Positions 1,722 to 60,795 of a stretch of DNA of 64,000 bases are shown one piece after another. Under the pieces are notes generated by a model that did not search any database, was not told the DNA's origin, and was given only the letters and a program-made list of their open reading frames with translations. Both the position numbers and the translations under genes were made by a program. Position 1 is the stretch's first letter. Each line of letters opens with the position of its first letter. This DNA comes from a virus. Taxonomy: Duplodnaviria; Caudoviricetes. Location: positions 1-64,000 of the IMG/VR virus record IMGVR_UViG_3300033070_000552; one strand, written 5' to 3'.

Positions 1722-2332
1722 GACTTCTCGCTCCACTTGTGGTTGCACGCCGGGCAGGTGATCTCCTTGCCGAACGTCGGCGTCACCGTCTTGGGCTCCG
1801 ACGGCGCGGGCGGGAGCAGCCCCTTCTCGATCTTCGCAAGCTCCTCGTCGGTGAACCCCGTCGCGAGGAAGGTGGCATCGGAGAGCGACCGGAGCGTCTC
1901 GGCCAACTTCACCTCGTCCCAATCGGCAAGCTCGGCGGTGCGGTTGGCGGCGATGCGAAACCCGGCGGCGGTCTTGGGGTCGTCGTCGACCGCGATCGCG
2001 GCGCAGTGGGTCCAGCCCAGCTCAAGCATCACCGTGTAGCGACCGTGGCCCGCCTCGATCTTGCCCGTGCGGGCGTTGACGACCAAGGGCTCGCGCTGGC
2101 CGAACTTGAGGAGCGAGCCCTTGACGGCTTCGAGGTTGGCCCTCGCGTGGGTCCGTTCGTTGGCGGGGTCGGGCTTGATATCGGCGATCGCGACGGCGAG
2201 GGGTAGCAACCCCGCGACGATCTGGTGGACGGCGGTTGGGGGCGGCGGCCCCTGGGCTATGACCGCCGGGGTCGGTTTATTTCGTGGTGAAATAACGGGC
2301 TTGGGTTTAGACAATTCGACGGATTTGGCCAT
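1718..2332 (-). CDS. Stand-alone ParB/Srx N-terminal domain protein with C-terminal CxxC
   Basis: DIKPDPANERTH...FGQREPLVV...IEAGHGR...ANRTAELADWD; ends CPACNHKW. ATG preceded by TATGAT-N6. Confidence 0.8.
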   Translation of the reverse strand: MAKSVELSKPKPVISPRNKPTPAVIAQGPPPPTAVHQIVAGLLPLAVAIADIKPDPANERTHARANLEAVKGSLLKFGQREPLVVNARTGKIEAGHGRYTVMLELGWTHCAAIAVDDDPKTAAGFRIAANRTAELADWDEVKLAETLRSLSDATFLATGFTDEELAKIEKGLLPPAPSEPKTVTPTFGKEITCPACNHKWSEKS

Positions 2333-2349
2333 GCGGGGATCATACCCGG

Positions 2350-3216
2350 CTACCAACCCGCTGGCACGTCGGTTTCGACCGACTTCCCGATCAGCGACCC
2401 GAGGTGCCGAAAGAACCGCGTGATTTGCGCGGCCTTGGCACGCATCCTCGGAAGTACCTTGGCGAGCCGACCGTCGCCGGGAGCGAGAATAAACTGGAAC
2501 TCTTTATCGAGGAACGGCAGGCTGATCGCAAACGCCTGGCCGTTCTCCCCGCCCCCGATCGTCGGGGATGAGTCGGAGACGTACACACCGGTCTGGGCCT
2601 TGACCGCCGGGATCGCGAGCCAGAACACCCCGTCGCCGATACACCCGGCGATCTCGTCCATGAATTTTTTGTTGAAGGCGACCCACACCACCGCGCGGTC
2701 ATCGGTGGGGTTGCGAAGCCGATCGACGACGAACCCGAGCATGCGATCAAAGTTGATCCGCCACGACTTGATCGCCTCGGGAATATCTGCCGTGGTGTAG
2801 GTGAACGATTCCTCCGTGCCGCTCTTTTTCTTGCGGGAGCCGACGCGGGTTCCGTCGTCCAAGGTCGCCATGTCGGTGAAGGTGCTCCCGGCCGGAACTG
2901 GCATCGTCAGCGTTTGAATATTCGCCTCGCTGATATCGCTGAGAATTTGCATCGGCGAGATCGCCAGTACGGCCCTGTTTGTCGCGACCGCCCACGTCGT
3001 TCCGTACATGCTATCCGGCCCCGGCGGAATCCCGACGATCAGCGAGCACGCGGGAAAGCCCTTGGAGACGTCGGGCTCGAACGACATATCGAGTTTGGGG
3101 ATACGCCCGTCGACCACGCGGATCGATCTCGGAACCTTGGCCGTCGGCTTAGACGGCAGGGCCGGGGTTGACGATATCGGTTTGCCCTGGGTCGACTTTG
3201 GTGCTGGCTTGGTCAT
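2350..3216 (-). CDS. hypothetical protein
   Basis: 289-codon ORF; ATG 4 nt after a GGGAACGTCT motif; no family recognised. Confidence 0.6.
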   Translation of the reverse strand: MTKPAPKSTQGKPISSTPALPSKPTAKVPRSIRVVDGRIPKLDMSFEPDVSKGFPACSLIVGIPPGPDSMYGTTWAVATNRAVLAISPMQILSDISEANIQTLTMPVPAGSTFTDMATLDDGTRVGSRKKKSGTEESFTYTTADIPEAIKSWRINFDRMLGFVVDRLRNPTDDRAVVWVAFNKKFMDEIAGCIGDGVFWLAIPAVKAQTGVYVSDSSPTIGGGENGQAFAISLPFLDKEFQFILAPGDGRLAKVLPRMRAKAAQITRFFRHLGSLIGKSVETDVPAGW

Positions 3217-3898
3217 TGGTAGACGTTCCCGTCGAAGCATCCACCGTCGATGTGGTCCCCGCGATCCTTCGGGACTTGGGCCTTGGCGCTTCGATCATGA
3301 TCTCGTCGATCGGGTTGCGATCGCTGGATCGATCGAGCCCGAGGTCGGCCCTGATCCCGGTGATGTTTTTGAGCGTGTCGGAAATATCCTTCACGATCGA
3401 CGAGTAGTGCTTCACGTCGTGCGACTTCGCGTCGATGTTTACGATCTCGTTGCCCTGCGGATCGATCTTCGCCATTCGAGCACGGGCGAAGATCGCGGCG
3501 GACTCGGAGAACACCGATATGTTTTCGAGAACCTGAACGAGCCGCTCGGACGCCACCTCGCTTTGAACGACGTTCCGCACGATCTGCTTTCTCATCATCT
3601 GCACGAAGAACCCGTTCTTGACGATCCCGAGCATTTGCTTCTTGTGGGCCGCCGACAGGTGCCCGCACTTGGAAAGGGCAACCGTCGGGATTTGGTACTT
3701 GATGGCGAACTCCGCAAGGGTCAGCGCCGGATCGACGAGCCAAAGCTCGCGGACGGCGGCCCAGTTGTACTTCACCCGCTTGCCGTCGTTGCGAATGATC
3801 GACGCGATCCCGATGCGAACGCACTCGCGATCCCTTGGGGGTATGTGACAGAACGACTCTGCGTCATTGTAACGGCGGGGGGCCGGCGGTTTATCCAT
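3149..3898 (-). CDS. putative terminase small subunit-like HTH protein
   Basis: KYNWAAVRELW...TLAEFAIKYQIP resembles the N-terminal HTH of phage TerS proteins; helical middle region; next to a ParB-MTase, a common TerS neighbour. Confidence 0.45.
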   Translation of the reverse strand: MDKPPAPRRYNDAESFCHIPPRDRECVRIGIASIIRNDGKRVKYNWAAVRELWLVDPALTLAEFAIKYQIPTVALSKCGHLSAAHKKQMLGIVKNGFFVQMMRKQIVRNVVQSEVASERLVQVLENISVFSESAAIFARARMAKIDPQGNEIVNIDAKSHDVKHYSSIVKDISDTLKNITGIRADLGLDRSSDRNPIDEIMIEAPRPKSRRIAGTTSTVDASTGTSTNDQASTKVDPGQTDIVNPGPAV

Positions 3899-3908
3899 AG
3901 GACAGATA

Positions 3909-4910: not shown

Positions 4911-5941
4911 GGCTTTCCCTTCCGCCCACAGAGCGGACACTCGGCCCCGACGATCTTGTGAACGCGATCCTCGATCTCTTTGAGGGCCTCGGTCTTGGAT
5001 CGAAGTGTACCCTCGCACCCATTGACCGCGACCATCGCGGCGGCGATCCGGTTGGCCTGATCGGTAAGATCGCGGCATCGGGCTTGAGTCTCCTGCCGCT
5101 CCTTCCACTTCGCCTCGGCGGCGGCGACTAGCTTCAACGCCTCGGCCACGGGTCGGTCCATTCGCTCGACGTCGGCGAGGAGCTGCTCGCATTGCGTGGC
5201 CGCGAGGAATAGCTCCCTCGCCCGATCCGATGCGGCGATGTGATCCTTGGACGTCGCGACGATCGACTCGCGAAACCTCGCCGAGTCGGCCCGCGAGAAC
5301 GCGGCCTCGGCGGTCTTGAACTTCGCCACGGCGTCGTCGAAAGACGCCTTGGACCGATCGGCCTCAAGCTGCGCGGCCTTGCGATTGGACTCGGCCTGGG
5401 CGAGCCCACGATAGACGACGTCGAGCCCCGAGACGGCCCCGATCATCTTGGCTAGATCGCCGGGCTTGGCATCAACACCGAACGCCGGGCCTCGTTGGGC
5501 CGAGAAGTGCAGGTCGGCCTCGACCCCCGAAAGATCAACCGGGCCGAGCTTGAGCGCGTCGGCTACCGGGGGAGGACAATCGGCCCCGACCTGCTGGTAT
5601 CTCTGAATCGCAGTAGCGGGTTGGCCTATTTGGTCTATGACGTATTCGTTGCACGCCGACTTGCCGACGCCCTTTGAGATAGAAACGGCAAGCCCATCGG
5701 CGAACGAGAGAGTGACCGATCCCGACTGCGATCCGATCGTGAGAAGGTCCTTGGCGGGGCAGTTCTCGACCACGGCCCGCACGGCCCGGTAGACGTTGGT
5801 CTTGCCCGAGTCGGACGGACCGACGACGACATTGAGCCCGGGGTGGAGATCAACCTCGCCCGACCGCCAGCTCATGCAGTTGGTAAGGTTGATCTGCGAG
5901 AGCTTGGCGGGTTTATTTCGTGGTGAAATAACGTTCGTCAT
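4907..5941 (-). CDS. sbcC: SbcC/Rad50 ATPase N-terminal half (Walker A, coiled coil, zinc hook)
   Basis: LNVVVGPSDSGKTNVYRAV Walker A; Q-loop-like FSAQRGP; heptad coiled coil; terminal CPLCG zinc hook; no Walker B. Confidence 0.85.
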   Translation of the reverse strand: MTNVISPRNKPAKLSQINLTNCMSWRSGEVDLHPGLNVVVGPSDSGKTNVYRAVRAVVENCPAKDLLTIGSQSGSVTLSFADGLAVSISKGVGKSACNEYVIDQIGQPATAIQRYQQVGADCPPPVADALKLGPVDLSGVEADLHFSAQRGPAFGVDAKPGDLAKMIGAVSGLDVVYRGLAQAESNRKAAQLEADRSKASFDDAVAKFKTAEAAFSRADSARFRESIVATSKDHIAASDRARELFLAATQCEQLLADVERMDRPVAEALKLVAAAEAKWKERQETQARCRDLTDQANRIAAAMVAVNGCEGTLRSKTEALKEIEDRVHKIVGAECPLCGRKGKP

Positions 5942-7137: not shown

Positions 7138-7158
7138 GTGCAAGACGTTCCCGTGGGA

Positions 7159-7794
7159 TCACTTCTTCGATCGGGAAAGCACCCTCGCATCGACGACTTT
7201 ATTTCGTGGTGAAATATTGATCGACGCCGCCCCGGCGAGAGCGACACAGACCGCATCCCCTTCGGCGTCGGTGGCAATCCTGAGACCGAACCGATCGAAC
7301 AGGCCGCGAAGTACGTCCTCCTTGCCCGGCGTCGATCGTTTCCATACCCCGGTCTTTCCCGCCGCCTTCCAGCACGCGATCGACCGCCCCGGCCAGTCGG
7401 GGCAGGCGGTGTACTTCGCCGTGATCGGGGCGATGTACCTCATCGCGAGCCCATGCTCCGACCACAATCGCTCGTGGATCACCCCGTGGACCTCGCCAAG
7501 GGTTTGCTGCGCGTGCTTTGACCCAAACGAGTAGCCCTCGGCGAAGATCGACGCGCCCTTGTTATAGACCCCGACCGGAACGTGGTTGCGAATGTGCTTG
7601 AGCGAGTGGCCAATCTCATCCCACAATCCCGCGAGCCGCTCCCCCTTGTCGGTCCTGGTACCGTCCGACCCGCATGCCGAGCAGACGAACGTCGAGACGA
7701 GTTTGGTCTTGCCCCCGTCGAATATTTCCAGAATCGCCACACCGGTAGCGGAGAGAGAAATATCGAGCCCGACGACACGATGGAGTGGAATCAT
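7159..7794 (-). CDS. ruvC: RuvC-like Holliday junction resolvase
   Basis: VVGLDISLSATG, FAEGYSF, LGEVHGVI, DAEGDAVCVAL acidic catalytic pattern. Confidence 0.8.
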   Translation of the reverse strand: MIPLHRVVGLDISLSATGVAILEIFDGGKTKLVSTFVCSACGSDGTRTDKGERLAGLWDEIGHSLKHIRNHVPVGVYNKGASIFAEGYSFGSKHAQQTLGEVHGVIHERLWSEHGLAMRYIAPITAKYTACPDWPGRSIACWKAAGKTGVWKRSTPGKEDVLRGLFDRFGLRIATDAEGDAVCVALAGAASINISPRNKVVDARVLSRSKK

Positions 7795-7879
7795 AAAACC
7801 CGGAGTCGCCTTTCGGAGACTCCGGGCCGAATAAACCCGCCGACCCTTCGGTCGGCGGATTGGGAAAAGAAGAAGCACG

Positions 7880-10134: not shown

Positions 10135-10316
10135 TGGGTTTGTTCCTTGCCCGACATATCGAGAATCGCACTTACCATCCCGCACCCCATACAGACCGAG
10201 GTGACGCGACGGTTGCACACGATCGTCGTCATCGGCGAGCCGTTCAATATCCGCACCCGCTTGGGGTCGACAGCGTAGTCGTGGCGGAACATGAACGCGA
10301 GCAGTCGGCGGATCAT
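10131..10316 (-). CDS. small hypothetical protein (Cys-containing)
   Basis: 61 aa; start and stop overlap both neighbours. Confidence 0.5.
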   Translation of the reverse strand: MIRRLLAFMFRHDYAVDPKRVRILNGSPMTTIVCNRRVTSVCMGCGMVSAILDMSGKEQTQ

Positions 10317-10959: not shown

Positions 10960-11124
10960 GGTTGGTCTCCCTGTCGGGTTGATATCCCTGCGATATCGAG
11001 GTGGCGATCGTTCAGGAGACGTTCCCGCGAGGTCGATCCTCCAAAAACAAAACTCCCCGCGACAGGGAGTCACGGGGAGCCGGAGCCCGGTATGGACGAC
11101 GAATCACATCCCGAGCAGTAAACC

Positions 11125-12246
11125 TTAGGCCTCGAACCGCTGGCGTGCGACCTCCAGCTCCTTGCGGACCATCGTGCTATCCATCTTGGCGGCGGCCTTC
11201 TGGATCGCGGCCTCAAGGTCGTAGCGGGCGAAGGACTGGACGTTGGCGGTGATCTGGATCTCAAGGCAGATCAGCATCCCCTCCTCGGTCTTACGCAGCA
11301 TCCCGCGAATCCCACTCTCGGTGGCGTTGGTGGCCTCGGCGTCGAGCGGGGCCTTCTCGACCGGGCGTCCAGCCCGTGTGCGTCCCGGGGCTCGCTCGGA
11401 CCTGGACTGCTTGGGGAGAACCTCCTCGACATCCTCGGCGGCGATCTTCCCGGCCTTGCCAAGCTTGCCCTTGACCGCGTTGCGAACCTGCTCAAGGGCC
11501 GACGCCTGGGCGTCGTGGTCGGGGCACCGCTGGACGATCGCGACACCGGCGTCGAGGGAAAGCTCGCCCGAGGCGATCGCGTCGGAGACCGGGCTCGACG
11601 CCTTGTTGGCGATCGTCACCGACCGGTTGAGGATCGAGGTTGAGACGCCGATCCGGTTGGCGAGTTCCTTTTCCGATCCGGCGTGGCCGATCCTGATCGC
11701 CTCGATCGCCGCCTTGCCAAGCTCGACCGGCGTCATGTTCGTGCGAACGAGGTTCTCGGCGAGCCCGGCGATGGTCGCGGCGGCCTCGGCGGCGCTGATC
11801 GCGTTGCCCTTGGCATCGGTGGCGAAACGTGCGGGGATGGTCTTGCGGCCGAGCTTGCGGTAGGCGAGTACGCGGGTGTTGCCCGAGATCAGATTCATCT
11901 CGGCGTCGACGATCACGGCGTTCTGAAGGCCGATCTTGCTGATCGACTTCGCCATCTCGTCAACCGACTCCTCGGAAGGCATGCGGAGCGTGTTGAGTTT
12001 GATCTCGTCGACCGGGAACTCCCCGGCGGTGAACCCCTCGGAGGGCTCGATCGATCCGGCGGTGCTCGCGTCGGTCGCCTCGGCGTTGGCCGTCGCGGCG
12101 GCGGTGGCCTCGGCGTTGGCCGTCGCGGCGGCGGTGGCCTCGGGGTCGAGAATCGACTCGGCGGCCTCGGCGGGTCGATTGGTCGCGGCCTTCTTGGCGG
12201 ACTTGGGGGACGACCTCTTCGACGACTTCTTGGCGGACTTGGACAT
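11125..12246 (-). CDS. parB: ParB/Spo0J/KorB-family DNA-binding CTPase
   Basis: SISKIGLQNAVIVD...LISGNTRVLA (GxxR), AENLVRTNMTPVE, HTH SEKELANRIGVSTSILNR, GELSLDAG; basic/Ala-rich N-terminal arm. Confidence 0.88.
   Translation of the reverse strand: MSKSAKKSSKRSSPKSAKKAATNRPAEAAESILDPEATAAATANAEATAAATANAEATDASTAGSIEPSEGFTAGEFPVDEIKLNTLRMPSEESVDEMAKSISKIGLQNAVIVDAEMNLISGNTRVLAYRKLGRKTIPARFATDAKGNAISAAEAAATIAGLAENLVRTNMTPVELGKAAIEAIRIGHAGSEKELANRIGVSTSILNRSVTIANKASSPVSDAIASGELSLDAGVAIVQRCPDHDAQASALEQVRNAVKGKLGKAGKIAAEDVEEVLPKQSRSERAPGRTRAGRPVEKAPLDAEATNATESGIRGMLRKTEEGMLICLEIQITANVQSFARYDLEAAIQKAAAKMDSTMVRKELEVARQRFEA
12077..12143. repeat. 30-bp tandem repeat (2 copies plus partial) in the parB 5' region
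   Basis: GCCTCGGCGTTGGCCGTCGCGGCGGCGGTG x2, encoding EATAAATANA repeats. Confidence 0.9.
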
Positions 12247-12370: not shown

Positions 12371-12541
12371 TCAAGATTCGTGATCGTCAGCAAGTTCGCC
12401 GATGCACTTTTCGCAGTGATGGCCATCGGGGGGAATCCCGTCGATCGCGGGCTTCGTCGCCTTGATGCCGTGCTTGCACTCATAGACCGGGATATTCGTT
12501 CTGTTGGGCAATTTCTTGGCGGTGGGTTTCGTCGTCGTCAT
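12371..12541 (-). CDS. small early protein with Cys/His motifs
   Basis: AAGGAG SD; first ORF after the promoter at 12594-12621; CKHG...HHCEKC. Confidence 0.55.
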   Translation of the reverse strand: MTTTKPTAKKLPNRTNIPVYECKHGIKATKPAIDGIPPDGHHCEKCIGELADDHES

Positions 12542-12590
12542 CGTCGGGCTCCTTGGGGTCTCGGTGTCAGAGATCCATTTCCCTGACACC

Positions 12591-12694
12591 GATATGATAC
12601 AGTCTATCGGCCCGATGTCCAGCCCTTCGGCTAATTTCATGGTGAAATAAACGAGATTTCTTTGGTAGGGGTCGGGTAGGGATCTACCGACCCC
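12591..12694. repeat. ~105-bp promoter cassette, copy 1 (copy 2 at 18190-18295)
   Basis: Near-identical CCGATATGATACAGTCTATCGG...AATTTCATGGTGAAATAAACGAGATTTCTTTGGTAGGGG...GGATCTACCGACCC in both places; partial third copy at 16432-16465. Confidence 0.9.
12594..12621 (-). promoter_or_regulatory. sigma70-type early promoter
   Basis: TGGACA-N16-TATCAT; 17-bp palindrome 11 nt upstream of the -35. Confidence 0.7.
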
Positions 12695-12717
12695 CTCGCC
12701 CGGCCCTAGAACCCGCC

Positions 12718-13479: not shown

Positions 13480-13529
13480 TGTCGGGCTCCAGAGTGAAAC
13501 GTGAAAGGGTGAAACGGACGGACTTAAAT

Positions 13530-14240: not shown

Positions 14241-14273
14241 GGGTTTATTTCCTGGTGAAATAAGGGAAGGGAA

Positions 14274-16396: not shown

Positions 16397-16436
16397 TGGC
16401 GGGCTCCCTGTGGCGGGGTCCTATCCCCGTCCCGAT

Positions 16437-16465: not shown

Positions 16466-16516
16466 GTCCCCGCCGTCGATATCCCTGCGATATCGACGGC
16501 GGGGCCGGAAGGGGGC

Positions 16517-18222: not shown

Positions 18223-18284
18223 GCCTCTAGTCTAATTTCATGGTGAAATAAACGAGATTTCTTTGGTAGGGGGTCGGTAGGGAT

Positions 18285-20080: not shown

Positions 20081-20138
20081 GCGAGACGTTCCCGCCGTGG
20101 GGGAGACCCGAACACCGTCCCGATATTTCATGGTGAAA

Positions 20139-20489
20139 TTAGACCGGAAGCTCCATCTCGTCGCTGGCCTTGCACTTCCTGAACCGCCGCATCCGGTTCT
20201 CCGCGTCGGTGATCGCCCGAAGGTTCTCGCGGCGGCAGTCGAGGCGGTTGGTGTTGTGGTGGTCGACCACCTTGTCCCACGGCACCGGCCCGTGCGCCCG
20301 CTCGTAGATCACACGGTGGAGATAGAGGGTCTTTCGCCTGCCCTTCACCCGAACGTCGCGGAAGGCGTACCCGTTGGTGTGCGGCCTCCACCGATGCGAG
20401 GCGAGAACGACGAGATCAACGTGGTCGATGATCACCGTGAACGACTGGGTCTTGGTTGTGATCTTGACTTCGCACACCAATGGAGTCAC
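20139..20489 (-). CDS. HNH endonuclease (HNH_3-like)
   Basis: LYLHRVI...VVDHHNTNRLDCRRENLRAITDAEN. Confidence 0.85.
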   Translation of the reverse strand: MTPLVCEVKITTKTQSFTVIIDHVDLVVLASHRWRPHTNGYAFRDVRVKGRRKTLYLHRVIYERAHGPVPWDKVVDHHNTNRLDCRRENLRAITDAENRMRRFRKCKASDEMELPV

Positions 20490-21916: not shown

Positions 21917-22584
21917 GGCATCTGCCTCTCGCGGTGCGAAAGTGTGACCGCACCGCCCGCCCCGACCCTGAACTTCGTCTTGAACGACTCGAAGAACGAC
22001 GAGGCCCCCGAGCCATACCGCCCCGACGCCTTGGCGAGGTTGGCCTGCGAGAGGTAGAGCGTCGGAGAGATCGACCCCCTGCGGGCCGAGATCAGATCGT
22101 CCATCACCGACGGAATCTTCTTGTGGTCGCCCACGTCGTCAATGGTAAAGACCAGCACGGAGTTCTGGGAAACGATCGCGTCCACGAGGTCCCGATCGTC
22201 GCGATCAAACCGCGAGTCGATGAGCCGCGAGAGCTTGAGGCCAGACAGGGACGGCTCGCGAACCGCCGACGACAGACCGGCCTCGGCGAACGATCTGGCG
22301 ATGTACGCGGAGACGTACTCGCGGGTCTGATCCGTTGGGCTTCCGTGAATCCAAATGTCGTGGGTCTTTATTTCATGGAGAAATACCGCGACCTTCGACG
22401 GGATGTACTTCGCCAGCTTGGCGACCGGGATCGACGCATAGACCTCGGGGAATCCGGCGGCACACATCGCCGACTTTGAGAGAGCGACGACGACACATTG
22501 ACACCTGGTCACGCCCGTCGCGGTGGGGATATGCCCGCGACCGCGACAGAGTTTGCATTCGGGACTGGCGACTGACTTGCTGAT
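21913..22584 (-). CDS. DnaC/IstB-like helicase loader (degenerate AAA+) with N-terminal Zn knuckle; probable ATC start
   Basis: In-frame CKLCRGRG...RCQC lies upstream of the called GTG 22512; AAGGAG-N7-ATC at 22584; LVFTIDDVG Walker-B-like; directly upstream of DnaB. Confidence 0.55.
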   Translation of the reverse strand: MSKSVASPECKLCRGRGHIPTATGVTRCQCVVVALSKSAMCAAGFPEVYASIPVAKLAKYIPSKVAVFLHEIKTHDIWIHGSPTDQTREYVSAYIARSFAEAGLSSAVREPSLSGLKLSRLIDSRFDRDDRDLVDAIVSQNSVLVFTIDDVGDHKKIPSVMDDLISARRGSISPTLYLSQANLAKASGRYGSGASSFFESFKTKFRVGAGGAVTLSHRERQMP

Positions 22585-26860: not shown

Positions 26861-27093
26861 TATTCGCCCCCGTTATTTCGCCGTGAAATATCGGTCCGCT
26901 GCCACGGGTAGACGACGGGCGGCACGTCGATGGTGGGGTCGAGCCGCTTGGCGAGCCCGGCGGCGATAAACCGGATCAGCTTCAATGTTCTGGTGTTCTT
27001 GGCCAACTGCTCGCCCTCGCATTCGAGGTATTGTCCGGCCTCTTCGGCAAGTTCCATTACCAAGAGAACACATTGGGCCGATCGGTCATTCAT
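26860..27093 (-). CDS. hypothetical protein
   Basis: 77 aa; ATG 3 nt after a GGGAACGTCT motif; coupled to dnaE. Confidence 0.55.
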   Translation of the reverse strand: MNDRSAQCVLLVMELAEEAGQYLECEGEQLAKNTRTLKLIRFIAAGLAKRLDPTIDVPPVVYPWQRTDISRRNNGGE

Positions 27094-28699: not shown

Positions 28700-28787
28700 G
28701 GGCTGGCCTCGCTGGATATTTCATGGTGAAATAAAGGGGATGGTTTCGGGCTCCGGTCGATATCGCAGGGGTGTCGGGGTGGACTTG

Positions 28788-33681: not shown

Positions 33682-33726
33682 CGACAGACGTTCCCGTGAT
33701 CGGACCTCCGATATTTCATGGTGAAA

Positions 33727-34788
33727 TTAGGCCGACCGATCGCTCTGGAGCGAAAGCGGTAGCGACGCCTTGTGGATCTCGCACCACTTGACGATCTTCG
33801 CCGTCTGGGGCTTGGAGAGGTGCGAGCCGAACACGCAAAAGACCATCGCCACCTCGTCGGTGGTGTGTGCGAGCTTCACCCACCCGGCGGTTTCGAGATA
33901 TCGCTCGGGGTCCTTGCCCGCCGCCCTTGATCGAAGATCGTCCGACCCCTCGACCAGCTTGAACGCGAGCCAGCCGTGCCCCATGTAAATGCACGGATAG
34001 AACCGCCCGTCGGGCGAGAGCCACCCGGCCTTGGGCTTCATCGACGGATCGGGTTCCGGGATCGGCCACTTGTCCATCGCGATCTGGAGGGCGATCGCGC
34101 CGTCGACGTTGCCCCTGAGTTCCCGCATCGCGTAGAAGGGGGTGTTGTCGGGGGTGAGTTCGGCGGCCTTGGGTTGGGCTCGCTCTAATCGCCGCCCCTC
34201 GCGGTCGGCCTGCCGGGCCTCGTGCCTGTCCTTCATCGCGTCGCGAATCTTCGGGCCCCACGTATTCCAGAACACCGACCACTCCTCCTTGGTCGGGCGA
34301 GGCATCATGCGGGCGAGCATGAGCGTCACAATCTCATGCCCGACGTACCCGACCGGCGAGGCATGGGTCACGAGCCCCTCGGCTATAGCCGCACTCCCGT
34401 TGATCGGGGCGCACGGCAAGCCCTGCGCACAGTGCGCGAGAGGCCCGAGCGACTTGATCACCTCGAAGTGCTTGGAGAACTTCTCATACTCCGCGAGCCG
34501 GTCGAGCATGAACCGCATCGACGGGGCCGGGTAGTTGACCCCCTTGCCGTACCGGGCGATCGGGTCCCACGAGTCGCCCGCGATTTGCACAAGCCCTTTA
34601 GGGATCGATCGGAGAGTCAGCGATCCGCCGATGATCGCGAACACCGAGTCGTCGTCGATCCCCGGCAGACCCTCCGAGAGCAATCGGTACGACTGAACGT
34701 ACTTGCCATCGACCCAGAGCGAGCGGGCGATGTCGACAAGACCGGTGGCGTCGATACCCATTGAGAGCGATTCGGTGTGCGTTGTCAT
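33727..34788 (-). CDS. hypothetical phage protein
   Basis: 353 aa, C-terminal GWLSPDGRFYPC...GH...GWVKL; ATG 3 nt after GGGAACGTCT. Confidence 0.65.
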   Translation of the reverse strand: MTTHTESLSMGIDATGLVDIARSLWVDGKYVQSYRLLSEGLPGIDDDSVFAIIGGSLTLRSIPKGLVQIAGDSWDPIARYGKGVNYPAPSMRFMLDRLAEYEKFSKHFEVIKSLGPLAHCAQGLPCAPINGSAAIAEGLVTHASPVGYVGHEIVTLMLARMMPRPTKEEWSVFWNTWGPKIRDAMKDRHEARQADREGRRLERAQPKAAELTPDNTPFYAMRELRGNVDGAIALQIAMDKWPIPEPDPSMKPKAGWLSPDGRFYPCIYMGHGWLAFKLVEGSDDLRSRAAGKDPERYLETAGWVKLAHTTDEVAMVFCVFGSHLSKPQTAKIVKWCEIHKASLPLSLQSDRSA

Positions 34789-35011
34789 ACGAGACGTTCC
34801 CGATCGCGAGGCTCCACCGATATTTCATGGTGAAATATCCGACCCCGACTTCCCCTCTCTCAATACCCATATCCCGCGCGGCGTGCGCCTTAAGATTCCC
34901 GCGAAACCGATTCTCAAATCGCCGATTCGGGAAATCTGGTGAAAATAGATCAGATTTTTGAAGATTCTTGGGGTTTATTTCGCCATGAAATAAAACGACC
35001 CCCTGTTCGGG

Positions 35012-38863: not shown

Positions 38864-38891
38864 GTCTACCGCCCTTTATTTCATGGTGAAA

Positions 38892-41800
38892 TTACGGACC
38901 CGCGTTGATCGTGATGATACGGGTTCTCTGAACCTCCGCGTCGATCTCGTTGACCCGCACCGTGACCTCGTTCAGGACCGCCACCGCCTCCTTGAGCTTG
39001 TTCGCGGTGCTGGCGATAGCCCCCAGAGACGCCTTGGCCGAGGCGGTTGTCGCCCCGCTCAAAGAGGCCGCCGAGTTGGAGAGGCTGTTAATCGCGTCAG
39101 GAAGCCCCGAGAGCGATCCGTCGTCCGGGGTAGACCCCGAGCCCCCGTAGGGGGCCGGACCGCCCGTAGGGGCCTCATCGCCCCCGTAAATAGGGCTGGT
39201 GGAAAGGTCGGGAAGATTGTCGCCCCCATAGAGCGGGCTGGTGGGGTAGCTCTTGCCCGATTTGGGCTTGCGGACGACCGTACCGGCCTGGGATGCGGGC
39301 GGGGCGGGCTTGCGAAGCTCCGACTCGCGGCGGGCGATCTCATCGAGCAGAATCTTGAACCGGGTCGCGACCTCTTTTTGTTCCTGGGCGATCTTTCTGG
39401 CGGTTTCGAGATCGCCCTTGTTGATCGCCTCGCGGCGCTGCCGCTCCAGAGCGTCGTACTCGGTTTTCTGGGTTTGTGAAACGACATCGCCGAAGCGGCG
39501 GGCCTCGCCCCCGGAGTTGAACTCCGAGAGCTTGCCGCGAACCGCTCCTCGGAACGTGCCCACGTCGCTCGATCCGGCGATCCCCGATTCGGCGGACCTC
39601 GCCGCGTCGAGCACGCCCGCCGAGCCCTGCCCGGCGCGAACCCGGTCGGCGATTTCCTCCTGGAGCAGCTTGAGCCGGTTGGCGGCGAGACGGTTGGCCT
39701 CCTGCTCGCGAACAAGCTGGGCCTTCTCGTACGCGCCCGCCTCTTCGAGCTTGGCGATGTACTTCTTGATCAGGTCGTCGCGGACGGCGAGGTTGTGGTT
39801 CTTCTCGGCGTCGCGGGCGAGCGACCGAAGCTCCTCGGCCTCCTTGAGCTGCGCGATCTTCCGGTTCTCGACCTTATCGGCCTCCCGCTCGGTTTGCTTG
39901 CGAACGGCCTCGGTGATCTTCGACTGGCGAATCGTTTCCGCCGACTGCAACTCCGCCCGGGTCTGATCCTCGATGTTCCTGATCTCGATCTGCCGCTCGT
40001 CGTCCGAAAGACCGATCGCCTCCCGGATCGCCTTGATCCTCGCGTCCCGCTCGTCGTCGATCCGTCGCATGGCCTTGTTGTGGTCGATCTCGATGCGTAC
40101 CCGATCGGCTCCGAGCAGATCGCCCTTGGCCTTGAGCGCCTCGGCCTCGCCCTCGCGGATTTCATCGCTCGCCTTGGACGAGGCGTCCCGCCGCTTGCGA
40201 ACCTCGTCATTGTAGAGTTCGGTGTACTGACGCTGGTTATCTTCGAGCACCTGTCTGATCTTCGCAGCCTGGGCGTCGATAACCGCGATCGAGTTGGCGG
40301 CCTCGGGGGAGCTAGCCCCGCCGTCCTTGTCGATCGTTGCCTTGCGGCGAAGTTCGAGGTTCTTGAGCTGTGCTTCGAGCAATACCCGCTCGTCGGCGAG
40401 TTCCTTGGCCTTGGCCTGCGCGGGCGACTGTCCCGACGTTTGGCGGTCCTTGGCGATCTTGTTGAGTTCGGTATCGAAAGCGGCGACGACCTTGGTCGTC
40501 TCGTTGATGATGTCGCGGAGCTTGACGTTGCCGCTGCGAAGGTCGAGTGTGGCGTTGGCGTACTTGTTCGACGCGGTGACGACCGAGTTCATCTGGGATT
40601 CGATCTCGGCCAGACGGTCCGCGATCTTGAGCCCCTCCGACTCCCCGTACGTTGCGCGAAGCACGGCCCGAAGGTTCGCCGACGTAGCGACAACCTTTCC
40701 GGTGGCCTCGTCGATACGCACATACCCATCGACGTTGTTCCCGGCTTTGGCCTGCTCGACGGTCGCCTCGCGAACCTTGTTGGCGAGCTGCTCGTACTCC
40801 CCGGCCAGCGTATCGACGATAGACGCGGCGGCGTTCTTGCCGTAGGTCCTTTCGAACTCGGCGTTGAGTTCCCTGAGCTTGGCCGCCGCCTCGGCGTTGC
40901 CCGCGTTGGCCGACCTTGCGAGGTCGGCGAGGTTCTGGAGCTTCTCCGCAACGTTGGTCGCGAGTTTGGCGTTCTCGGCCATGCGCTGCTGGAACTTCTC
41001 GTCGTTGGCCTCGGCGTACGACTTCTTCTGGGCCTCGGCGAACTTGAGGAGCTTGTCAGAGGCGACGTCCTGGCCCGACCTGGACTCGATCAGCCCGAAG
41101 AACTCAAGGGCCTTCTCGATCGCCTTGCCGATCGCGTATCCGATCCCGAGGAACACCGCCGCGACGGCCGTCGCGGCCACTACGGCCGTCGCGATGGTCG
41201 CGATCAAAGCACCGATCGATGCAACGGCCGCCCCGATCGCCGCGCCCATCGCGGTAAAGGTGCCCGTCGCAACAACCGCCGTACCGGCGGCCGCGCCGGT
41301 GGCGGTTGCAAGGGCGGCCTCTGCCGCCGCCGCTGATCCCGTTGCCGCCGTGAGCCGAACCATCGCCGCCGACTCGGCCTCGGCCGCGATCGTCGCGGCG
41401 GTGGTTGCCGTCGCGACCTCGGCCTGGGCAACGGTGGTAAGCGACGCGGCGGCGGTGAGGTCCCGCGACGCCGTCGTCGCGATCGTGGTTGTACTCGCGG
41501 CCTTGGCGACGACGGCCTCCCGAGCGGCCGTGGCGCTGGCAAGGGCGGTCTCGGCCGCCGCAAGTTCGTTGTTGGCCGAGACCAGATCGCGTACCGCCGA
41601 CGGGATCAGGTTCGCGGCCCCTGGGGTCACGGCCTTGAGCCGACCGTTGGCCCCGCGATTCGACGCGGCGAGGTTGAGACCCGCGACGCGGTTCTCGGCG
41701 ACCTCCTGCCGCAGCACGGCGGCGGTGAGGGCGTCCTCGGCGACCCGCTCGGCGATCCGGGCGTCGGTCATGGCCCGCGACGCGGCGGTGGCCGTGGTGC

Positions 41801-43358: not shown

Positions 43359-43390
43359 ACGCGGGGTTTATTTCATGGTGAAATATCGAC

Positions 43391-46305: not shown

Positions 46306-47286
46306 CTATCCGCCAAACCCGAGCGACTTGGCGATATCGCCCTTGGGGGGCTCGCCGTAGACGTGGCCGAGCAGGGCGGGGTTCTCGATGATCCCGCCGA
46401 GCCGACGGATCAGCGCGTCGCAATCGCGACCGACAAGACGCCTTGGGTCGATGAGCTTCTCGATGTTGTCCATGTCGTCGAGCATGGAGAGACGCCAGAT
46501 ATCGAGCGCCTCGAACATGTGCAACGGACGCGGGTAGTCGCGGGGGCGAACCTTGGCCATGCCCGGGACCCGATCCTGCGGACCCTGCCTCGTGGGGATT
46601 GTCGGCTCGCCCTCGATAAACGAGTACCCCTCCATCATTCGCTCGGCGACGAACCCGGCGGTCACCCCGACGACGCGGCGGTCGCGGTTGAGCATGCGAA
46701 CGAACCGGGCCCCCTGCACGTCCTCGGTCTCCTCGGAGATCGGCGGGCGGGTCTCGGTTCGCTTTGAAAGAGCGGCGACGCGGGTCTGGGGTTTGGGATC
46801 GGGCTTTGGCTGCTCGTCCTCGTCGTCCTTCGGACGCGGCGCACGCTTGACGCGGCGATAGGGCCGCTCGTCCTCGTCGATCCCCTCGATCTTGATTTTG
46901 GTGGGGGTGGGCTCGGAGTCGTCCTCCTCGGGCTCGATCGGGCGAACGGTGATCCGGCCCACGCGGGTCATGGGCGGGGGGCTCCTCGGGGCGGGCTCGG
47001 TAAAGCCCTCGTCCTCCGCGACGCTCCCGGGGCCGGGTTTATTTCGTGGTGAAATAACGGGCCTGGGCTTGGACGCCTTGGGGGGATTGACCGGATTGGG
47101 CGGCTCGACGATCGCGTCCGGGGCGAGGATGAGCGGCCTCTTGGGGGCGACACGGACGGCGGGGGCCGACACCTCCGGTTTATTTCGTGGTGAAATAACG
47201 GAATCCTTGCGTCGTTCCGGGGGCTTGATCTTCGCGGTTGTCGGTTTGGTGATTCGAACGGACTCGATGCGGGTCTGCTTGGCCAT
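46306..47286 (-). CDS. Pro/charge-rich, largely disordered protein in the head module
   Basis: GAGGAG SD; low-complexity N-terminal two thirds containing two palindrome-encoded VISPRNK motifs; folded-looking C-terminus. Confidence 0.6.
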   Translation of the reverse strand: MAKQTRIESVRITKPTTAKIKPPERRKDSVISPRNKPEVSAPAVRVAPKRPLILAPDAIVEPPNPVNPPKASKPRPVISPRNKPGPGSVAEDEGFTEPAPRSPPPMTRVGRITVRPIEPEEDDSEPTPTKIKIEGIDEDERPYRRVKRAPRPKDDEDEQPKPDPKPQTRVAALSKRTETRPPISEETEDVQGARFVRMLNRDRRVVGVTAGFVAERMMEGYSFIEGEPTIPTRQGPQDRVPGMAKVRPRDYPRPLHMFEALDIWRLSMLDDMDNIEKLIDPRRLVGRDCDALIRRLGGIIENPALLGHVYGEPPKGDIAKSLGFGG

Positions 47287-50742: not shown

Positions 50743-50807
50743 GGTGCGGTTGATAATACCGCATTTGGGAGTCCGCGTCACCTTCGGGGTACGGCTGGGA
50801 GTTTATT

Positions 50808-51542
50808 TCATGGTGAAATAACCCGGAATGGCCGACCCGGCATCCTTCGGCCCGAGGGCTTGTACCCGGGGGAGGCGGCCCCCGAAACGACCGCGATCTC
50901 CCTGAACAGCCCCTCGATCTTCACGAGCCTCTGCCGGATGTACTCCCGCGTGAACCCGAGCGAGTTGCCGACTTGTTCGAGCGTCCGTCCGCTCAACCTT
51001 CCGACGACGATGAGATACTCGATATCGTCCAGCGAGTCCATGATCGCGTGAACCGCCTGCCGCTCGATCGGCGAAAGAGGCTCAGGCGTTTCCGATCGGT
51101 CTACGAGCTGCGAGGCCCGGTCCCACTTGGCGATTTTGCCGTACGGATCGCTCAGCGATTGAACGTACCCGGTCCTTCGCATGATCTCCGCCGTTTGCTC
51201 GGGCATCTGGTGGAAGTCGACGACCCCGCGAATCAGCCTGTCGTTTCGTCTCCGCATACGAACGAGCCAGTGGGGCAGGAAGTTGAACGCGGCGGTCTTT
51301 GGGTCGCACGAGCCGTCGTACTTCGAGAGGCGGTCGCCGACGTACTCGAATGCATAAGACACGTACTCGTCGGCCCGGTCCCCGCAGCACTTCCCGCAGT
51401 GGAACCGGATCAGGCCGATATGTCGCTCGATGAATGCGTTGCGGGCCTGGGTGTCGCCCCTGGAGGCGGCCTCGGCAAGATCGCGATCGGTGCGGGGATC
51501 GGCGGATCGCTTGGGGTCCTGAACGTAACGGATATTTGACAT
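50808..51542 (-). CDS. phage RNA polymerase sigma70-family factor
   Basis: RGDTQARNAFIERHIGLI (regions 1.2/2.1), LSKYDG, region 4 RTLEQVGNSLGFTREYIRQR. Confidence 0.85.
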   Translation of the reverse strand: MSNIRYVQDPKRSADPRTDRDLAEAASRGDTQARNAFIERHIGLIRFHCGKCCGDRADEYVSYAFEYVGDRLSKYDGSCDPKTAAFNFLPHWLVRMRRRNDRLIRGVVDFHQMPEQTAEIMRRTGYVQSLSDPYGKIAKWDRASQLVDRSETPEPLSPIERQAVHAIMDSLDDIEYLIVVGRLSGRTLEQVGNSLGFTREYIRQRLVKIEGLFREIAVVSGAASPGYKPSGRRMPGRPFRVISP

Positions 51543-52649: not shown

Positions 52650-52947
52650 TAGGCGGGGTTGGAGGGCGATGCGTCCTGGGGGATCGTAGGGGAAACGGCG
52701 GCGTTATTTCGTGGTGAAATATCGGAGCCCCGAAGGGCCATCCTGGCGAGCTGCGCCCGCTGAACCCCTAGAAGCCCTTTGGAGTATCTCGCCGTGGGGT
52801 TTGCCGCGTCAAACACCGCCAGCCTTACCTCGGCCTCGCTTGGTTCTGCCCGAGGTGGCCCCTGCGGTGGTTGGCTGTCCGCTTGCCCCGTCGGTCTGGG
52901 GGGCTGTTCCACTCCCAGAATTTTTCCCAGAGTTTGGAGTAGTCCCA
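52649..52947 (-). CDS. possible small protein overlapping the portal 3' end
   Basis: AGGA SD, ATG 52947 (MGLLQTLGKILG...); its stop abuts the head morphogenesis start. Confidence 0.4.
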
Positions 52948-55337: not shown

Positions 55338-55396
55338 TGGGTGGTTCTCCGTACGTGGGGGCGGCGATATTTCACCGTGAAATAAACCGGGTTCGG

Positions 55397-58004: not shown

Positions 58005-58885
58005 GGGGCGGGGGTGGGAGTCGATATCCCTGCGATATCGACCCGGAGACGTTTACCGTCGATGGGGGATTCCTTGTAGAGCCGGTCCTTGGCGATCTCG
58101 ACGTACTCGGGCGAGATTTCGATGCCCGTGAAGTACCGCCCGTGCTTGGCCGCGATCACGGCGGTGGTGCCCGAGCCGAGAAACGGGTCGAGCACCATGT
58201 CGCCGGGTCTGGAGAACGTCTGAACGAGATCCTGGCAGAGCCGGTCGGGGAAGGTCGCGGGGTGGCGGAACTTGGTGGGGTTGGCCTCGGTGACGGTGCC
58301 GCGATAGTCCCACACCGTGCCTCGACACATCGTCGCGGGATTGATCAGTACCTTCCCCGGTTTGTTTTTGACCCATCCGTCCTTACCGAGATGTCCGGTG
58401 CTTCCGCTGCTACGAGTTTTCCCCGGTCGCGATGTCGGGATAAACGTTGTCGACTTATCGAACGCCCGCAACTTCTCGCCGTTGCAGAACACAAAGACGT
58501 GCTCGTGGTCTCCGCGGAAGCACGTCGGGAAAATGCCCGGGATTCCCCCGCGTCGATAGACCAGATCATCGAACAACCGCCACCCCATCTCCATCCACGC
58601 GGCCGCCATGCGGATCGACGTGCCCGACCTCAGCCCGTTCTTGCGGGCGTCCTGAATGACCACGATCGCCGCCCCCCCGACAACCGTGGCCCGTTTGATC
58701 TGCTCGCCGAGCCGCTTGAGATCGACCGACCACTTGCCCTTGTAGTTGCGCAGGTCGTCGTACGGCGGGCTCGTGACCGTGCAATGGATCGACCCGGGGG
58801 CGATCTTCCCCAGTACGTCGTGGCACGAGCCGATGAGGATGCGCGAGCCGTCGGTGAGCTGACGCGGCGTGAGGATGTCACCCAT
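58001..58885 (-). CDS. N4C/N6A DNA methyltransferase (beta class)
   Basis: TSPPY, HPATFP, VLDPFLGSGTT. Confidence 0.92.
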   Translation of the reverse strand: MGDILTPRQLTDGSRILIGSCHDVLGKIAPGSIHCTVTSPPYDDLRNYKGKWSVDLKRLGEQIKRATVVGGAAIVVIQDARKNGLRSGTSIRMAAAWMEMGWRLFDDLVYRRGGIPGIFPTCFRGDHEHVFVFCNGEKLRAFDKSTTFIPTSRPGKTRSSGSTGHLGKDGWVKNKPGKVLINPATMCRGTVWDYRGTVTEANPTKFRHPATFPDRLCQDLVQTFSRPGDMVLDPFLGSGTTAVIAAKHGRYFTGIEISPEYVEIAKDRLYKESPIDGKRLRVDIAGISTPTPAP

Positions 58886-59186: not shown

Positions 59187-59212
59187 GGAATGAATCTCCT
59201 TGGCGTGGTCTG

Positions 59213-59806
59213 CTAGACGGCAATCGGTATCGGTTCGTTGAACACCGGACGGGTCATTCTAAAACCACTGGAGGCCGCGCGTCGCACGACCCTCGCGTCG
59301 TAGGCGTCGGACTGCCCGCTGGCGCTGGCGTACCGCATGACCTTGTACCCGGCCTGGTCGATCTTCTTGCCCAGAGCGACAAGCTCGGCAGCGTTGGTCG
59401 GGGCGGGGACGACCACCGACGAGAACAGAAGCCCGCCCGAGATCGGAACCTTGGCGTGGCGAAGCCGAACCGCCGCGTGGTCCCACCTGGGGAACATATC
59501 GAAGCGGTCGTGCATCGGCCTCTCCCCGCAGTATTCCGCGTAGCACGGGAGCGAGAGCTTGAGCCGGATCAGCGTGAGAAGCTGGTCGTCGAAGTACCGC
59601 TCGTCCCCGAGGAACGCGATCATGCGGGGCCTGTCGTCCCCTCGTGGCATCTCGGCGGCGATGCGGTCGAAAAGATCGTGGAGCTTGTAGCTCTTGCACT
59701 GCCGCTCGTTGAACACGACCGCCATGACCGGGAGCCCGGCGATGTACCCGTCGCCCCCGAGCCACGACGGGATCAGCGTGTAGAGCGGGTAGAGAGACTT
59801 GCTCAT
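59213..59806 (-). CDS. degenerate QueE/NrdG-like radical-SAM-fold protein lacking CxxxCxxC
   Basis: SWLGGDGYIAGLPVMAVVF, IAFLGDE and CYAEYCG align by eye with QueE motifs SIQGEG..AG.P.VF, VVITGGEP and IETNG. Confidence 0.4.
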   Translation of the reverse strand: MSKSLYPLYTLIPSWLGGDGYIAGLPVMAVVFNERQCKSYKLHDLFDRIAAEMPRGDDRPRMIAFLGDERYFDDQLLTLIRLKLSLPCYAEYCGERPMHDRFDMFPRWDHAAVRLRHAKVPISGGLLFSSVVVPAPTNAAELVALGKKIDQAGYKVMRYASASGQSDAYDARVVRRAASSGFRMTRPVFNEPIPIAV

Positions 59807-60324
59807 GGCGCGGCCTCGGCTTCCCTGCCCTTGGGCCGCATCGCGTCGCGGAGCTTCTGCGAGGCGAGGGCCGAGTCGGCGATCCGCTGGTTGTCGTCGG
59901 CGGCGTTGGCGTCGAGCCTCCGCTCGATCGCCCGGAGAACATACGAGACGACCGACCCGTCGGGGAGGATCAGCCCCGCCCCCGAGAGCATCTTGAAGTG
60001 GGAGACCACGCACGAGGACGGCATCGACGTACGCTGGTCGATCGCGAAGAGAACCGCGTTGGCGTGATCGGCGACGCGGGACCAGCACCACGAAAGCACC
60101 GCCTCATCCCCGACGGCGAGTATCTCGCGAGGGATCGGGTCGCTCGCGGCCACCGATCGAAGCGTGTGCGACGCCGAGGCCCACCCCGAGACGAACTCGA
60201 TCCAATACGGGATACCAAAGCACACGCCCATCCTCCACCGCTCGCTCTCGTGGCGAGTAGCGATGGCGGCGACCTCCTGGGCGAACGTCCTCGCCGGTTC
60301 TTGCGATGGCCCTTTGGACTTCAC
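59803..60324 (-). CDS. hypothetical protein
   Basis: GTGA/ATGA-coupled to both neighbours. Confidence 0.55.
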   Translation of the reverse strand: MKSKGPSQEPARTFAQEVAAIATRHESERWRMGVCFGIPYWIEFVSGWASASHTLRSVAASDPIPREILAVGDEAVLSWCWSRVADHANAVLFAIDQRTSMPSSCVVSHFKMLSGAGLILPDGSVVSYVLRAIERRLDANAADDNQRIADSALASQKLRDAMRPKGREAEAAP

Positions 60325-60698
60325 CCTTTGAGTTTCTCCAGACCCTCGATGCCGATCGCGGGGCCGAGCGTCGGGTCCTCGGAGTAAAGCCACCGCTTCT
60401 CGTCGGCGCTGAGCGTCGTGAAGAACATCTCGCGGCACCTGTCGCACCCCCGCTCGGTGACGTGCCAGATCGACGAGATGATCTCGCACCGGCGGGCGAG
60501 CTGCGAGGCCGACTGCTGCTCCTGGGGCGATACCTCAAGGTCGGCGTCGTCCTTCCCGCAGAGCGTGCGGGTCTTGACCGCGTACTCGACCCCCGGCGTT
60601 ACAAGGGCGTCGCCGGGGATCACGATCGGGCCACGGCGGACCGTGTAGGGGGCGCGCGGTTTATTCCAGACGATCGGAAGTTGGTGGGGATGCGGCAT
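60321..60698 (-). CDS. hypothetical protein with Cys motifs
   Basis: GGAGG SD; C..., CDRC. Confidence 0.55.
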   Translation of the reverse strand: MPHPHQLPIVWNKPRAPYTVRRGPIVIPGDALVTPGVEYAVKTRTLCGKDDADLEVSPQEQQSASQLARRCEIISSIWHVTERGCDRCREMFFTTLSADEKRWLYSEDPTLGPAIGIEGLEKLKG

Positions 60699-60795
60699 GA
60701 CGGAAAGCCTCCATTGGCGATCAGTGTAGACGATCGGGGATTGTTCCGCACAATCGGTGGAGGGGTCGGTTTATTTCACCATGAAATAAAACGGG

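Follow-up and report, generated by a model that had tools for sequence, protein, structure and literature searches.

Which protein reads the 17-bp palindromes that are dispersed over the genome of the phage IMGVR_UViG_3300033070_000552, and what might such a dispersal mean for the phage? The viral record comprises 88,798 bp (CheckV completeness 100%), has a GC content of 63-66%, and carries practically all of its genes on the minus strand; its first 64 kb, i.e., the whole stretch of 64,000 bp analysed here, are referred to below as the window. The original prediction for this DNA linked the palindrome, TATTTC-N5-GAAATA, to a ParB-family protein of 373 amino acids encoded at 11125..12246 on the minus strand (P0001). 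On the basis of sequence comparisons, we consider it fairly probable that the palindromes are docking sites of this protein, an orphan of the ParB/Noc/KorB fold, and that together they form a genome-wide grid. Each palindrome would be a double-stranded DNA docking site for a P0001 dimer, with one 6-7-bp arm read by each helix-turn-helix (HTH).

The window contains 21 copies of the palindrome (16 exact and five with one mismatch), as had been predicted, compared with 0.00 in dinucleotide-preserving shuffles; the whole genome contains 31. The claim that about 17 copies share one orientation also stands, because 17 of the 21 have the centre NTGG[T/A] on the plus strand, and genome-wide the asymmetric centre points along transcription in approximately 27 of the 31 copies. 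The palindrome is better written in a 7-3-7 notation (TATTTCA-CCA-TGAAATA), and the consensus of the sites in the sense direction is cgt-TATTTCACCA[T/C]GAAATA-aaccc. There is about one site per 2.9 kb, the largest gap is 5433 bp, and the coefficient of variation of the gaps is 0.44. Such evenness is not expected from uniform placement (P = 1e-5) or from 31 random draws from the 113 gene junctions (P = 5e-5).

The original prediction placed many of the sites inside genes. Nine copies are indeed fully coding, but about 22 of the 31 lie at gene junctions, overlap stop codons, or adjoin promoters: approximately 14-16 copies are intergenic, and a further 6-8 share bases with the stop codon of the preceding gene. 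Five of the nine coding copies fall within about 25 codons of the gene end. It may be that the sites sit where high-GC coding DNA tolerates an AT-rich 17-mer, i.e., at junctions, stop codons, and poorly conserved protein tails. In the window, where all of the sites are recorded on the minus strand, clearly intergenic copies are found at 14246..14262 (5 nt ahead of the ATG of 14034-14240 and lacking a Shine-Dalgarno (SD) sequence), 34821..34837, 34976..34992 and 60772..60788 (both with the centre in reverse orientation), 43369..43385 (10 nt before the ATG of the tape-measure gene), and 55368..55384 (centre ACGGT), and a further copy, 28717..28733, lies 17 nt before the ATG of 27644-28699. The sites at 20124..20140, 33712..33728, and 38877..38893 abut the TAA stops of 20139-20489, 33727-34788, and the tape-measure gene 38892-43358, respectively, the last being 13 nt before the next ATG, and the site at 50804..50820 supplies the TGA stop of the gene for a sigma-70 region 4 protein (50808-51542). 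Another copy (26874..26890) occupies the last 10 codons of a small open reading frame (ORF), 26860-27093, and lies 13 nt before the ATG of DnaE. In the one-mismatch AATTTC variants the preceding T creates a TAA stop, and in other copies the internal TGA serves as the stop.

The coding copies impose the same peptide on different proteins. ISPRNK is encoded at 2278..2294 (VISPRNK; 5' part of ORF 1718-2356), 5914..5930 (codons 4-9 of the gene for the N-terminal half of SbcC/Rad50, 4907-5941, 7 nt after the RecA stop), 7200..7216 (NISPRNK; 3' tail of the RuvC-like gene 7159-7878), and 47040..47056 and 47181..47197 (VISPRNK at both; ORF 46306-47286). The forced peptide had been recognized in the original prediction, but one of its supposed hosts had to be corrected: ORF 1718-2356 gives no ParB_N match, the ParB_N domain being part of a methylase encoded at 441-1922. 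Related peptides occur at 52705..52721 (DISPRNN; 24 codons before the stop of ORF 52649-53128) and, beyond the window, at 81031 (VISPRNI), while the mid-gene copy at 22369..22385 (ORF 21913-22512) is read in a different frame (FLHEI). The coding copies all read ACCAC, which gives Arg, since with ACCAT the frame would be closed by a TGA stop.

Promoters provide a further context. As claimed in the original prediction, five sites of the window are adjacent to promoter-like elements: 12633 and 18234 lie near a SigA-like -35, and 20124, 33712, and 34821 lie near the start-associated motif GGGAACGTCT. Three sites (12633, 18234, and 86271) are positioned 11 nt upstream of the -35 in a repeated SigA-like promoter, TGGACA-N16-TATCAT. 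The first of these belongs to the operon of the ParB-like protein itself, again as predicted; its module (12371..12649, minus strand) consists of the site (12633-12649), 11 nt, the -35 TGGACA, N16, and the -10 TATCAT, which is flanked by CCGATA..TATCGG, followed by a hairpin, an SD sequence, a small ORF (12371-12541) for which no family match was obtained, and then the ParB-like gene. The second (18234..18250) lies after the primase gene and before a small gene and the MoxR gene, and a site of the relative L047 (4911) lies in the same junction. The same promoter module is found upstream of the ParB-like operons of the relatives L051, L047, and L058, and the geometry of the site relative to the -35 is also seen in L051. 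The sites thus have a constant placement immediately 5' of the -35 at some promoters, among them that of the ParB-like operon.

The promoter module is a repeat in its own right. Five copies of about 100 bp are present on the sense strand (starting at plus coordinates 12621, 16465, and 18222 in the window and 73994 and 86259 in the remainder of the genome), each comprising a -35 TGGAC[AT], 16-17 nt, and a -10 TATCAT bracketed by the inverted repeat CCGATA-N10-TATCGG, followed by a hairpin, an SD sequence, and a small ORF beginning MTT.. or MNA..; the core is kept in L047, L051, L058, and L060. The second promoter-like element, GGGAACGTCT, has 22 genome copies on the sense strand and none on the antisense strand (e.g., 418-427, 7143-7152, 20084-20093, 31988-31997, 32800-32809, and 34792-34801) and usually lies 3 nt before ATG (GGGAACGTCTcgcATG). 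It looks like a phage-specific promoter or a start signal of genes whose transcripts are leaderless or nearly so. The phage also encodes its own sigma-70 region 4 protein, mentioned above.

The sites 20124, 33712, and 34821 lie 16-30 nt upstream of GGGAACGTCT, which precedes ATG: site 20124 is 30 nt upstream of GGGAACGTCT-cgc-ATG, site 33712 is 16 nt upstream of the motif, and site 34821 is 19 nt upstream of GGGAACGTCT-cgt-ATG of 33727-34788. Many other copies lie 5-20 nt before a start codon, several of them without an SD sequence (e.g., GAAATAaacccATG at 14246 and 78996), and intergenic copies hold stops in two or three frames together with a mini-ORF, ATG AAA TAA. Such features, like the orientation of the centre along transcription, would also suit a signal acting in RNA, i.e., a sense-oriented intercistronic hairpin that tunes translation, coupling, or messenger RNA processing, and a symmetric change of the arms, as described below for the relatives, would preserve base pairing too. 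Nonetheless, this explanation seems quite improbable. The hairpin is weak (-3.6 to -4 kcal/mol), the loop sequences are not conserved in relatives, both orientations of the centre occur in L047, the one-mismatch copies break the outer pair by A-A or T-T with no G-U bias, the distance to the -35 is fixed in several copies that precede promoters, and no Rfam family was found at the sites. The closeness to starts follows simply from the intergenic gaps being 30-50 nt long. A parallel could be sought in the start-associated sequences of Cluster K mycobacteriophages (as cited in PMC4351075), which are asymmetric 13-mers placed strictly 3-8 nt upstream of start codons; repeats that closely precede many start codons are common to them and the present phage. 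However, the present motif differs in being palindromic and in having nine coding copies and several copies upstream of promoters, and it does not belong with the start-associated sequences.

If the sites are read as duplex DNA, P0001 is the leading candidate for the reader. The original prediction that it is a ParB-family protein with GxxR, ENLxR, and HTH elements is correct, although the protein is divergent. Its P motifs are G122-N-T-R125 (canonical GERR) and E164-N-L-V-R168; among 34 family members, the G and R of the GxxR motif are invariant (GNTR in 19 of the 34), and the ENLVR box aligns to ENLQR of Noc, with N165 and R168 nearly invariant. The N-terminus is basic, rich in Lys and Ser, and predicted to be disordered. 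Alignment with Noc and Helicobacter pylori ParB places the HTH at residues 172-230, and the recognition helix lies around S202-K215, thus including Asn207. P0001 matches PHROG ParB families at up to 5e-18 (residues 38-297), and its best PDB sequence matches are Noc (7NG0, 3e-5) and then H. pylori ParB. In Foldseek searches, the AlphaFold2 model of P0001 matches Noc, ParBs bound to cytidine triphosphate (CTP) or cytidine diphosphate, and KorB at 1e-8 to 1e-6 (1e-8 to 1e-7 for Noc and the nucleotide-bound ParBs, 1.6e-6 for KorB 8QA9) over about 210 columns, which include the DNA-binding domain. The C-terminal module (residues 296-373) is family specific and conserved; it is predicted to form two strands and two helices (predicted local distance difference test (pLDDT) score 62-76), and it gave no match among the C-terminal domains known from ParBs.

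The predicted absence of a ParA holds for the complete genome, in which no ParA/CbiA match was found at E <= 1. Moreover, the ParA-binding motif (L/F/I)G(K/R)G(L/F/I) is absent from all 34 family members, so the protein does not conform to a canonical ParABS system. A conserved 'ATPase' encoded two genes downstream of the ParB-like gene was considered as a ParA and rejected, since it is the C-terminal half of a Rad50/SMC-type ABC protein with no Walker A. Its 212-aa gene (9496-10218, minus strand) carries the signature, Walker B, and H-loop and probably encodes the missing half of a short SbcC-like protein (4907-5941, minus strand), which contributes the Walker A half (AAA_23/SMC_N N-terminus) and adjoins SbcD (3909-5192). 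Both halves of this apparently split Rad50/SbcC are kept in all relatives, and an SMC-like link to the ParB-like protein, suggested by the nearness of the genes, is worth a thought.

Further clues to a partnership between protein and site come from related phages. Neither the region nor the ParB-like protein found a match by megablast and tblastn among 50,697 phage records, and DnaE is only 27% identical to its Streptomyces phage homologues, i.e., close relatives are lacking among isolated phages. When IMG/VR was scanned for the exact 17-mer, single chance copies were the only matches, and a related-locus search in viral and genome contig sets yielded no relatives, hence no prophage relatives. 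Large protein databases, however, contain relatives of P0001 at 57-80% identity and one at 38%; a profile search delimits a family of 29 cluster representatives, which match over their full length at E <= 1e-43, followed by generic ParBs at 1e-18. The contigs of these relatives, which are uncultured phages, are syntenic even at 30% identity (DnaB, primase, MoxR, VWA, ParB-like, RecA, and SbcCD).

Each of eight lineages has dispersed copies of a 17-bp palindrome of its own, with a 6-5-6 architecture that follows NNTTNN-N5-NNAANN and with T3 and T4 kept in all arms. Counts for the relatives refer to fetched contig regions (for L047, a region of a 55-kb contig), those for G000 to the complete genome of the present phage. 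The arm is TATTTC in G000 (P0001; 31 copies) and L051 (P0011; four copies), TGTTTC in L047 (P0008; five exact and two near copies) and in L057 (P0009) and L058 (P0007; one copy each), [A/T]GTTTC in L049 (P0006; three copies), CTTTCA in L055/L056 (P0013; at least five copies, each adjoining a TATATAT box), AATTGC in L069 (P0020; three copies), ATTTGC in L068 (P0021; two copies), and GATTCG in L070 (P0022; three copies). In G000, L047, L051, L069, and L070, the top palindrome family lies above all Markov shuffles. The centres vary freely among relatives. Candidate cognate duplexes for the proteins P0001 and P0008 are TATTTCACCATGAAATA and TGTTTCTACCGGAAACA.

The change between TATTTC and TGTTTC arms is symmetric (A2/T16 to G2/C16). 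Base 2 of the arm is the very base that separates the Noc-binding site (NBS) from parS and is discriminated by ParB and Noc (PMC7383237). The original prediction equated the arms with those of the Noc site; this is correct for G000 and also for L051, whereas the arms of L047, L057, and L058 are those of parS. The recognition helix changes as well: ..LN[RK].. (Asn207) goes with TATTTC, ..[LI]SK.. (Ser) with TGTTTC, and A[AS]EVSR.. with xxTTGC, Asn207 corresponding to ParB N178 or to position 177, a mapping that is ambiguous by one residue in the sequence alignment. P0011 is 69% identical to the TGTTTC group and 59% identical to P0001, i.e., overall closer to the former; therefore, judging from these sequences, Asn/TATTTC is probably the ancestral state and Ser/TGTTTC arose once.

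The positions of the sites point in the same direction. The ParB-like gene is preceded by a site at no more than about 550 nt in six of the eight lineages, and the L047 equivalent of site 2278 (at 19139) lies just upstream of the homologous gene. The original prediction expected intragenic copies to persist in related phages, and this is partly so: the site in the RuvC-like tail occurs at the same aligned position in G000 and L051 (TATTTC) and in L057 (TGTTTC, in another frame), but it is lacking in L047 and L049. The corresponding peptides are ISPRNK (G000), ISSRNT (L051), and FLLETT (L057). Since the position is kept while the peptide changes, it is the DNA, not the protein, that is under selection.

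The P0013 lineage, at 38% identity the most distant of the close relatives, offers a further observation. Its palindrome CTTTCA-N5-TGAAAG (L055 at 174, 1673, 5252, and 9143; L056 at 1438) lies each time 6-8 nt upstream of the TATATAT box, so that it coincides in part with the -35 region of AT-rich promoters. Between one of these sites and the ParB-like gene there is an additional palindrome, TTCCGAAAATTCGGAA.

Several observations weigh against P0001 as the reader of the sites. The Pfam ParB_N score of P0001 is 17.7 bits, below the cut-off of 26.3, and the structural model has moderate confidence only (pLDDT 68 overall; 70-86 for residues 72-260). The HTH specificity residues, whose comparison with ParB and Noc the original prediction had envisaged, do not form the conserved Noc/ParB set: the base contacts are partly kept, with Glu at the equivalent of Q162, Val at K171, and Thr or Ala at 173 (in the context GVST/GVSA, not Gln or Arg). 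Because the contact residues are only partly kept, the match of the half-sites to parS and NBS could be a coincidence. The site is 17 bp long, one more than parS and NBS, and the orientation bias of the centre in G000 is not accounted for by a symmetric dimer on duplex DNA. In addition, the covariation between helix and arm is confounded by phylogeny and includes few independent events; arm distance correlates with helix distance at rho 0.51 and with whole-protein distance at rho 0.44, i.e., barely above the phylogenetic signal, which is why the statistic was not taken to be decisive. The palindromes co-occur just as well with any of the core genes that these syntenic phages share.

A different dimeric protein might therefore read the TATTTC palindromes, be it one of the many small proteins without an assigned function, a host factor, or the NrdR-like protein encoded at 32000-32239 (minus strand), with P0001 binding elsewhere, e.g., at a second class of palindromes, or acting without sequence-specific sites. 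This second class, GATATC-GCAGG-GATATC, is represented by six copies in a single orientation, which are found at junctions between genes and ahead of two promoter modules (10981-10997, 16478-16494, 31468-31484, and 58023-58039 in the window; 73998 and 83795 in the genome). The copy at 16478..16494 (minus strand) directly precedes a SigA-like promoter in the junction between MoxR and VWA, in which L047 carries a site of the TGTTTC type (6381); the copy at 10981 is exactly conserved in the relative L060 (position 2005), and L047 and L058 carry GATATT-N6-AATATC inside their promoter modules. Two classes of the same architecture in equivalent promoter slots imply that at least one further binder exists; the GATATC class is probably read by a binder different from that of the TATTTC class, and this second binder could be the true reader of the TATTTC sites. 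Unrecognized DNA-binding proteins are likely, because about 85% of the approximately 106 ORFs covered by the Pfam scan lack a Pfam family. The only other regulators that Pfam recognizes among them are the sigma-70 region 4 protein and the NrdR-like protein, which has 79 aa, an NrdR-type zinc ribbon (Pfam 2e-13), and no ATP-cone, and is possibly a small DNA-binding regulator. NrdR-type proteins bind AT-rich palindromes; in the fetched regions of the relatives, the NrdR-like gene was not seen.

Even so, we regard a binder other than P0001 as unlikely. The ParB-like protein is the only recognized HTH regulator conserved across all eight lineages examined; the arms equal those of NBS and parS in two lineages, and a site is present at the promoter of the ParB-like operon in most lineages. 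We infer that P0001 is the binder and that it acts as a dimer and binds a nucleotide. Each site would nucleate the binding of P0001, which, provided that its nucleoside triphosphate switch is intact, would then spread or slide along the adjacent kilobases; the nucleotide preference of ParB folds is unpredictable from sequence or AlphaFold3 (PMC12704722). The most likely role would be a KorB-like or Noc-like one, namely, genome-wide marking or regulation of the phage DNA.

Other DNA transactions might also use dispersed palindromes, which could be targets of methyltransferases, recombination or replication signals, or functionless selfish repeats. The phage genome encodes four N6_N4 DNA methyltransferases, one of which is the fusion with a ParB_N domain at 441-1922 (minus strand), and it is rich in recombination genes (RecA, a RuvC-like protein, the split SbcC, and SbcD). 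However, the targets of methylases are usually 4-6 bp long and are not 17-bp palindromes with a free centre, and the even spacing, the retention of position through the arm switch, and the fixed promoter geometry speak for a selected protein-binding site. We give this group of explanations very little credence. The idea of a ParB-dependent T-dioxygenase (PMC13229309) was rejected as well: no TET/JBP dioxygenase (Tet_JBP) gene was found in the phage genome, and P0001 has a DNA-binding domain.

Among known systems, that of the present phage would, by analogy, work most like KorB/OB of plasmid RK2 or Noc/NBS. KorB acts at 12 OB operators on the IncP plasmid RK2 (PMC11790492). It shares with P0001 the ParB fold, supported by the structural match to 8QA9, and an HTH, which in KorB reads palindromes dispersed over the entire replicon; some OB operators lie immediately upstream of a -35 (class I) and others far from promoters, and KorB is a global regulator with functions beyond segregation. 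The 31 phage sites likewise are dispersed palindromes, some of them at a -35, including that of the protein's own promoter. However, KorB is plasmid-borne and has a ParA partner, IncC, as well as a clamp-locking partner, KorA, for which no candidate was identified here, no test having been aimed at one. The phage replicon differs further in its 31 evenly spaced 17-bp sites with a free 3-5-bp centre, the GNTR motif, and the family-specific C-terminal domain.

Noc is an orphan ParB paralogue without ParA that binds about 70 NBS sites in Bacillus subtilis (PMC7383237, PMC8429893). It is the best match of P0001 in both sequence and structure (7NG0, 7NFU) and has many dispersed sites, the arms of which are identical to those in G000 (TATTTC/GAAATA), while relatives have parS arms. 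On the other hand, the Noc residues Q173, K179, K184, and R201 are not present in P0001 (PMC7383237), no N-terminal amphipathic membrane helix is seen in it, the site has 17 bp instead of 16, and the replicon is a virus and not a chromosome.

The original prediction described the system as undescribed, and this label needs care. The literature searched yielded no account of ParB sites arrayed across the genomes of non-temperate phages, and a recent survey reports many orphan ParB folds in phages with no DNA sites or roles assigned (PMC12704722). However, Cluster O mycobacteriophages have a published analogue, i.e., more than 30 dispersed copies of the 17-bp repeat TGTTCGG-N3-CCGAACA, reported in 2015, to which the authors assigned no binder (PMC4351075). 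The likeness extends to the 7-3-7 architecture, to arms that fit NNTTNN-N5-NNAANN, to copies that are intergenic, near gene starts, and inside genes, and to the host replicon, a high-GC siphophage without integrase or parA. Written as 6-5-6, the Cluster O repeat is TGTTCG-N5-CGAACA, one base off the TGTTTC arms. In Corndog (L077), 27 copies were confirmed in the right arm, and gp90 (12425-13933, minus strand), a protein with a ParB N domain (GQRR and ENxxR) and an HTH, is flanked by repeats at 12274 and 14294; hhalign of gp90 with the P0001 family over the N domain and HTH gives 92.6% (E 4.5e-7). In contrast to the present phage, the arm is different, the repeats are concentrated in the right arm and are not even, and gp90 has 502 aa and lacks the C-terminal domain of the P0001 family. 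The Cluster O authors considered gp90 unlikely to act in genome stability (PMC4351075).

The lifestyle of the phage also bears on these comparisons. A tyrosine integrase was not found in the complete genome, serine recombinases and protelomerase not having been checked separately. Phage-encoded ParB-family proteins with palindromic centromere sites are well known from N15 (SopB) and P1 (ParB), the sites being scattered in the N15 genome (sopC). Those systems have a ParA/SopA partner and serve the segregation of plasmid prophages, whereas the present phage has no ParA and shows no sign of a plasmid lifestyle. Among its other genes, two adjacent transfer RNA genes (29244-29390, minus strand; Rfam 66 and 60 bits) and a pair encoding a MoxR AAA+ ATPase and a VWA-domain protein (14586-17818, minus strand), which adjoins the primase gene, may be mentioned; the MoxR/VWA pair is kept throughout the relatives, even where the ParB-like protein is only 30% identical.

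Known roles of ParB-type CTP switches are the segregation of chromosomes and plasmids (ParB), nucleoid occlusion (Noc), and the silencing of plasmid genes (KorB). To this set the phage family adds a protein together with its probable site, naturally occurring variants of specificity (among them TATTTC, TGTTTC, AATTGC, and GATTCG), and a grid of even spacing over the whole genome. It is tempting to go further, if only tentatively, and to propose that a partner-less ParB-fold nucleotide switch, loaded at an even grid of co-evolving palindromes, coats or marks the entire chromosome in an apparently non-temperate phage family. If so, the 17-bp repeats of Cluster O phages would be explained in like manner through gp90 of Corndog, a cultivable parallel, and the coating or marking would serve a purpose other than segregation, such as the timing of transcription, the discrimination of phage DNA from host DNA, or protection.

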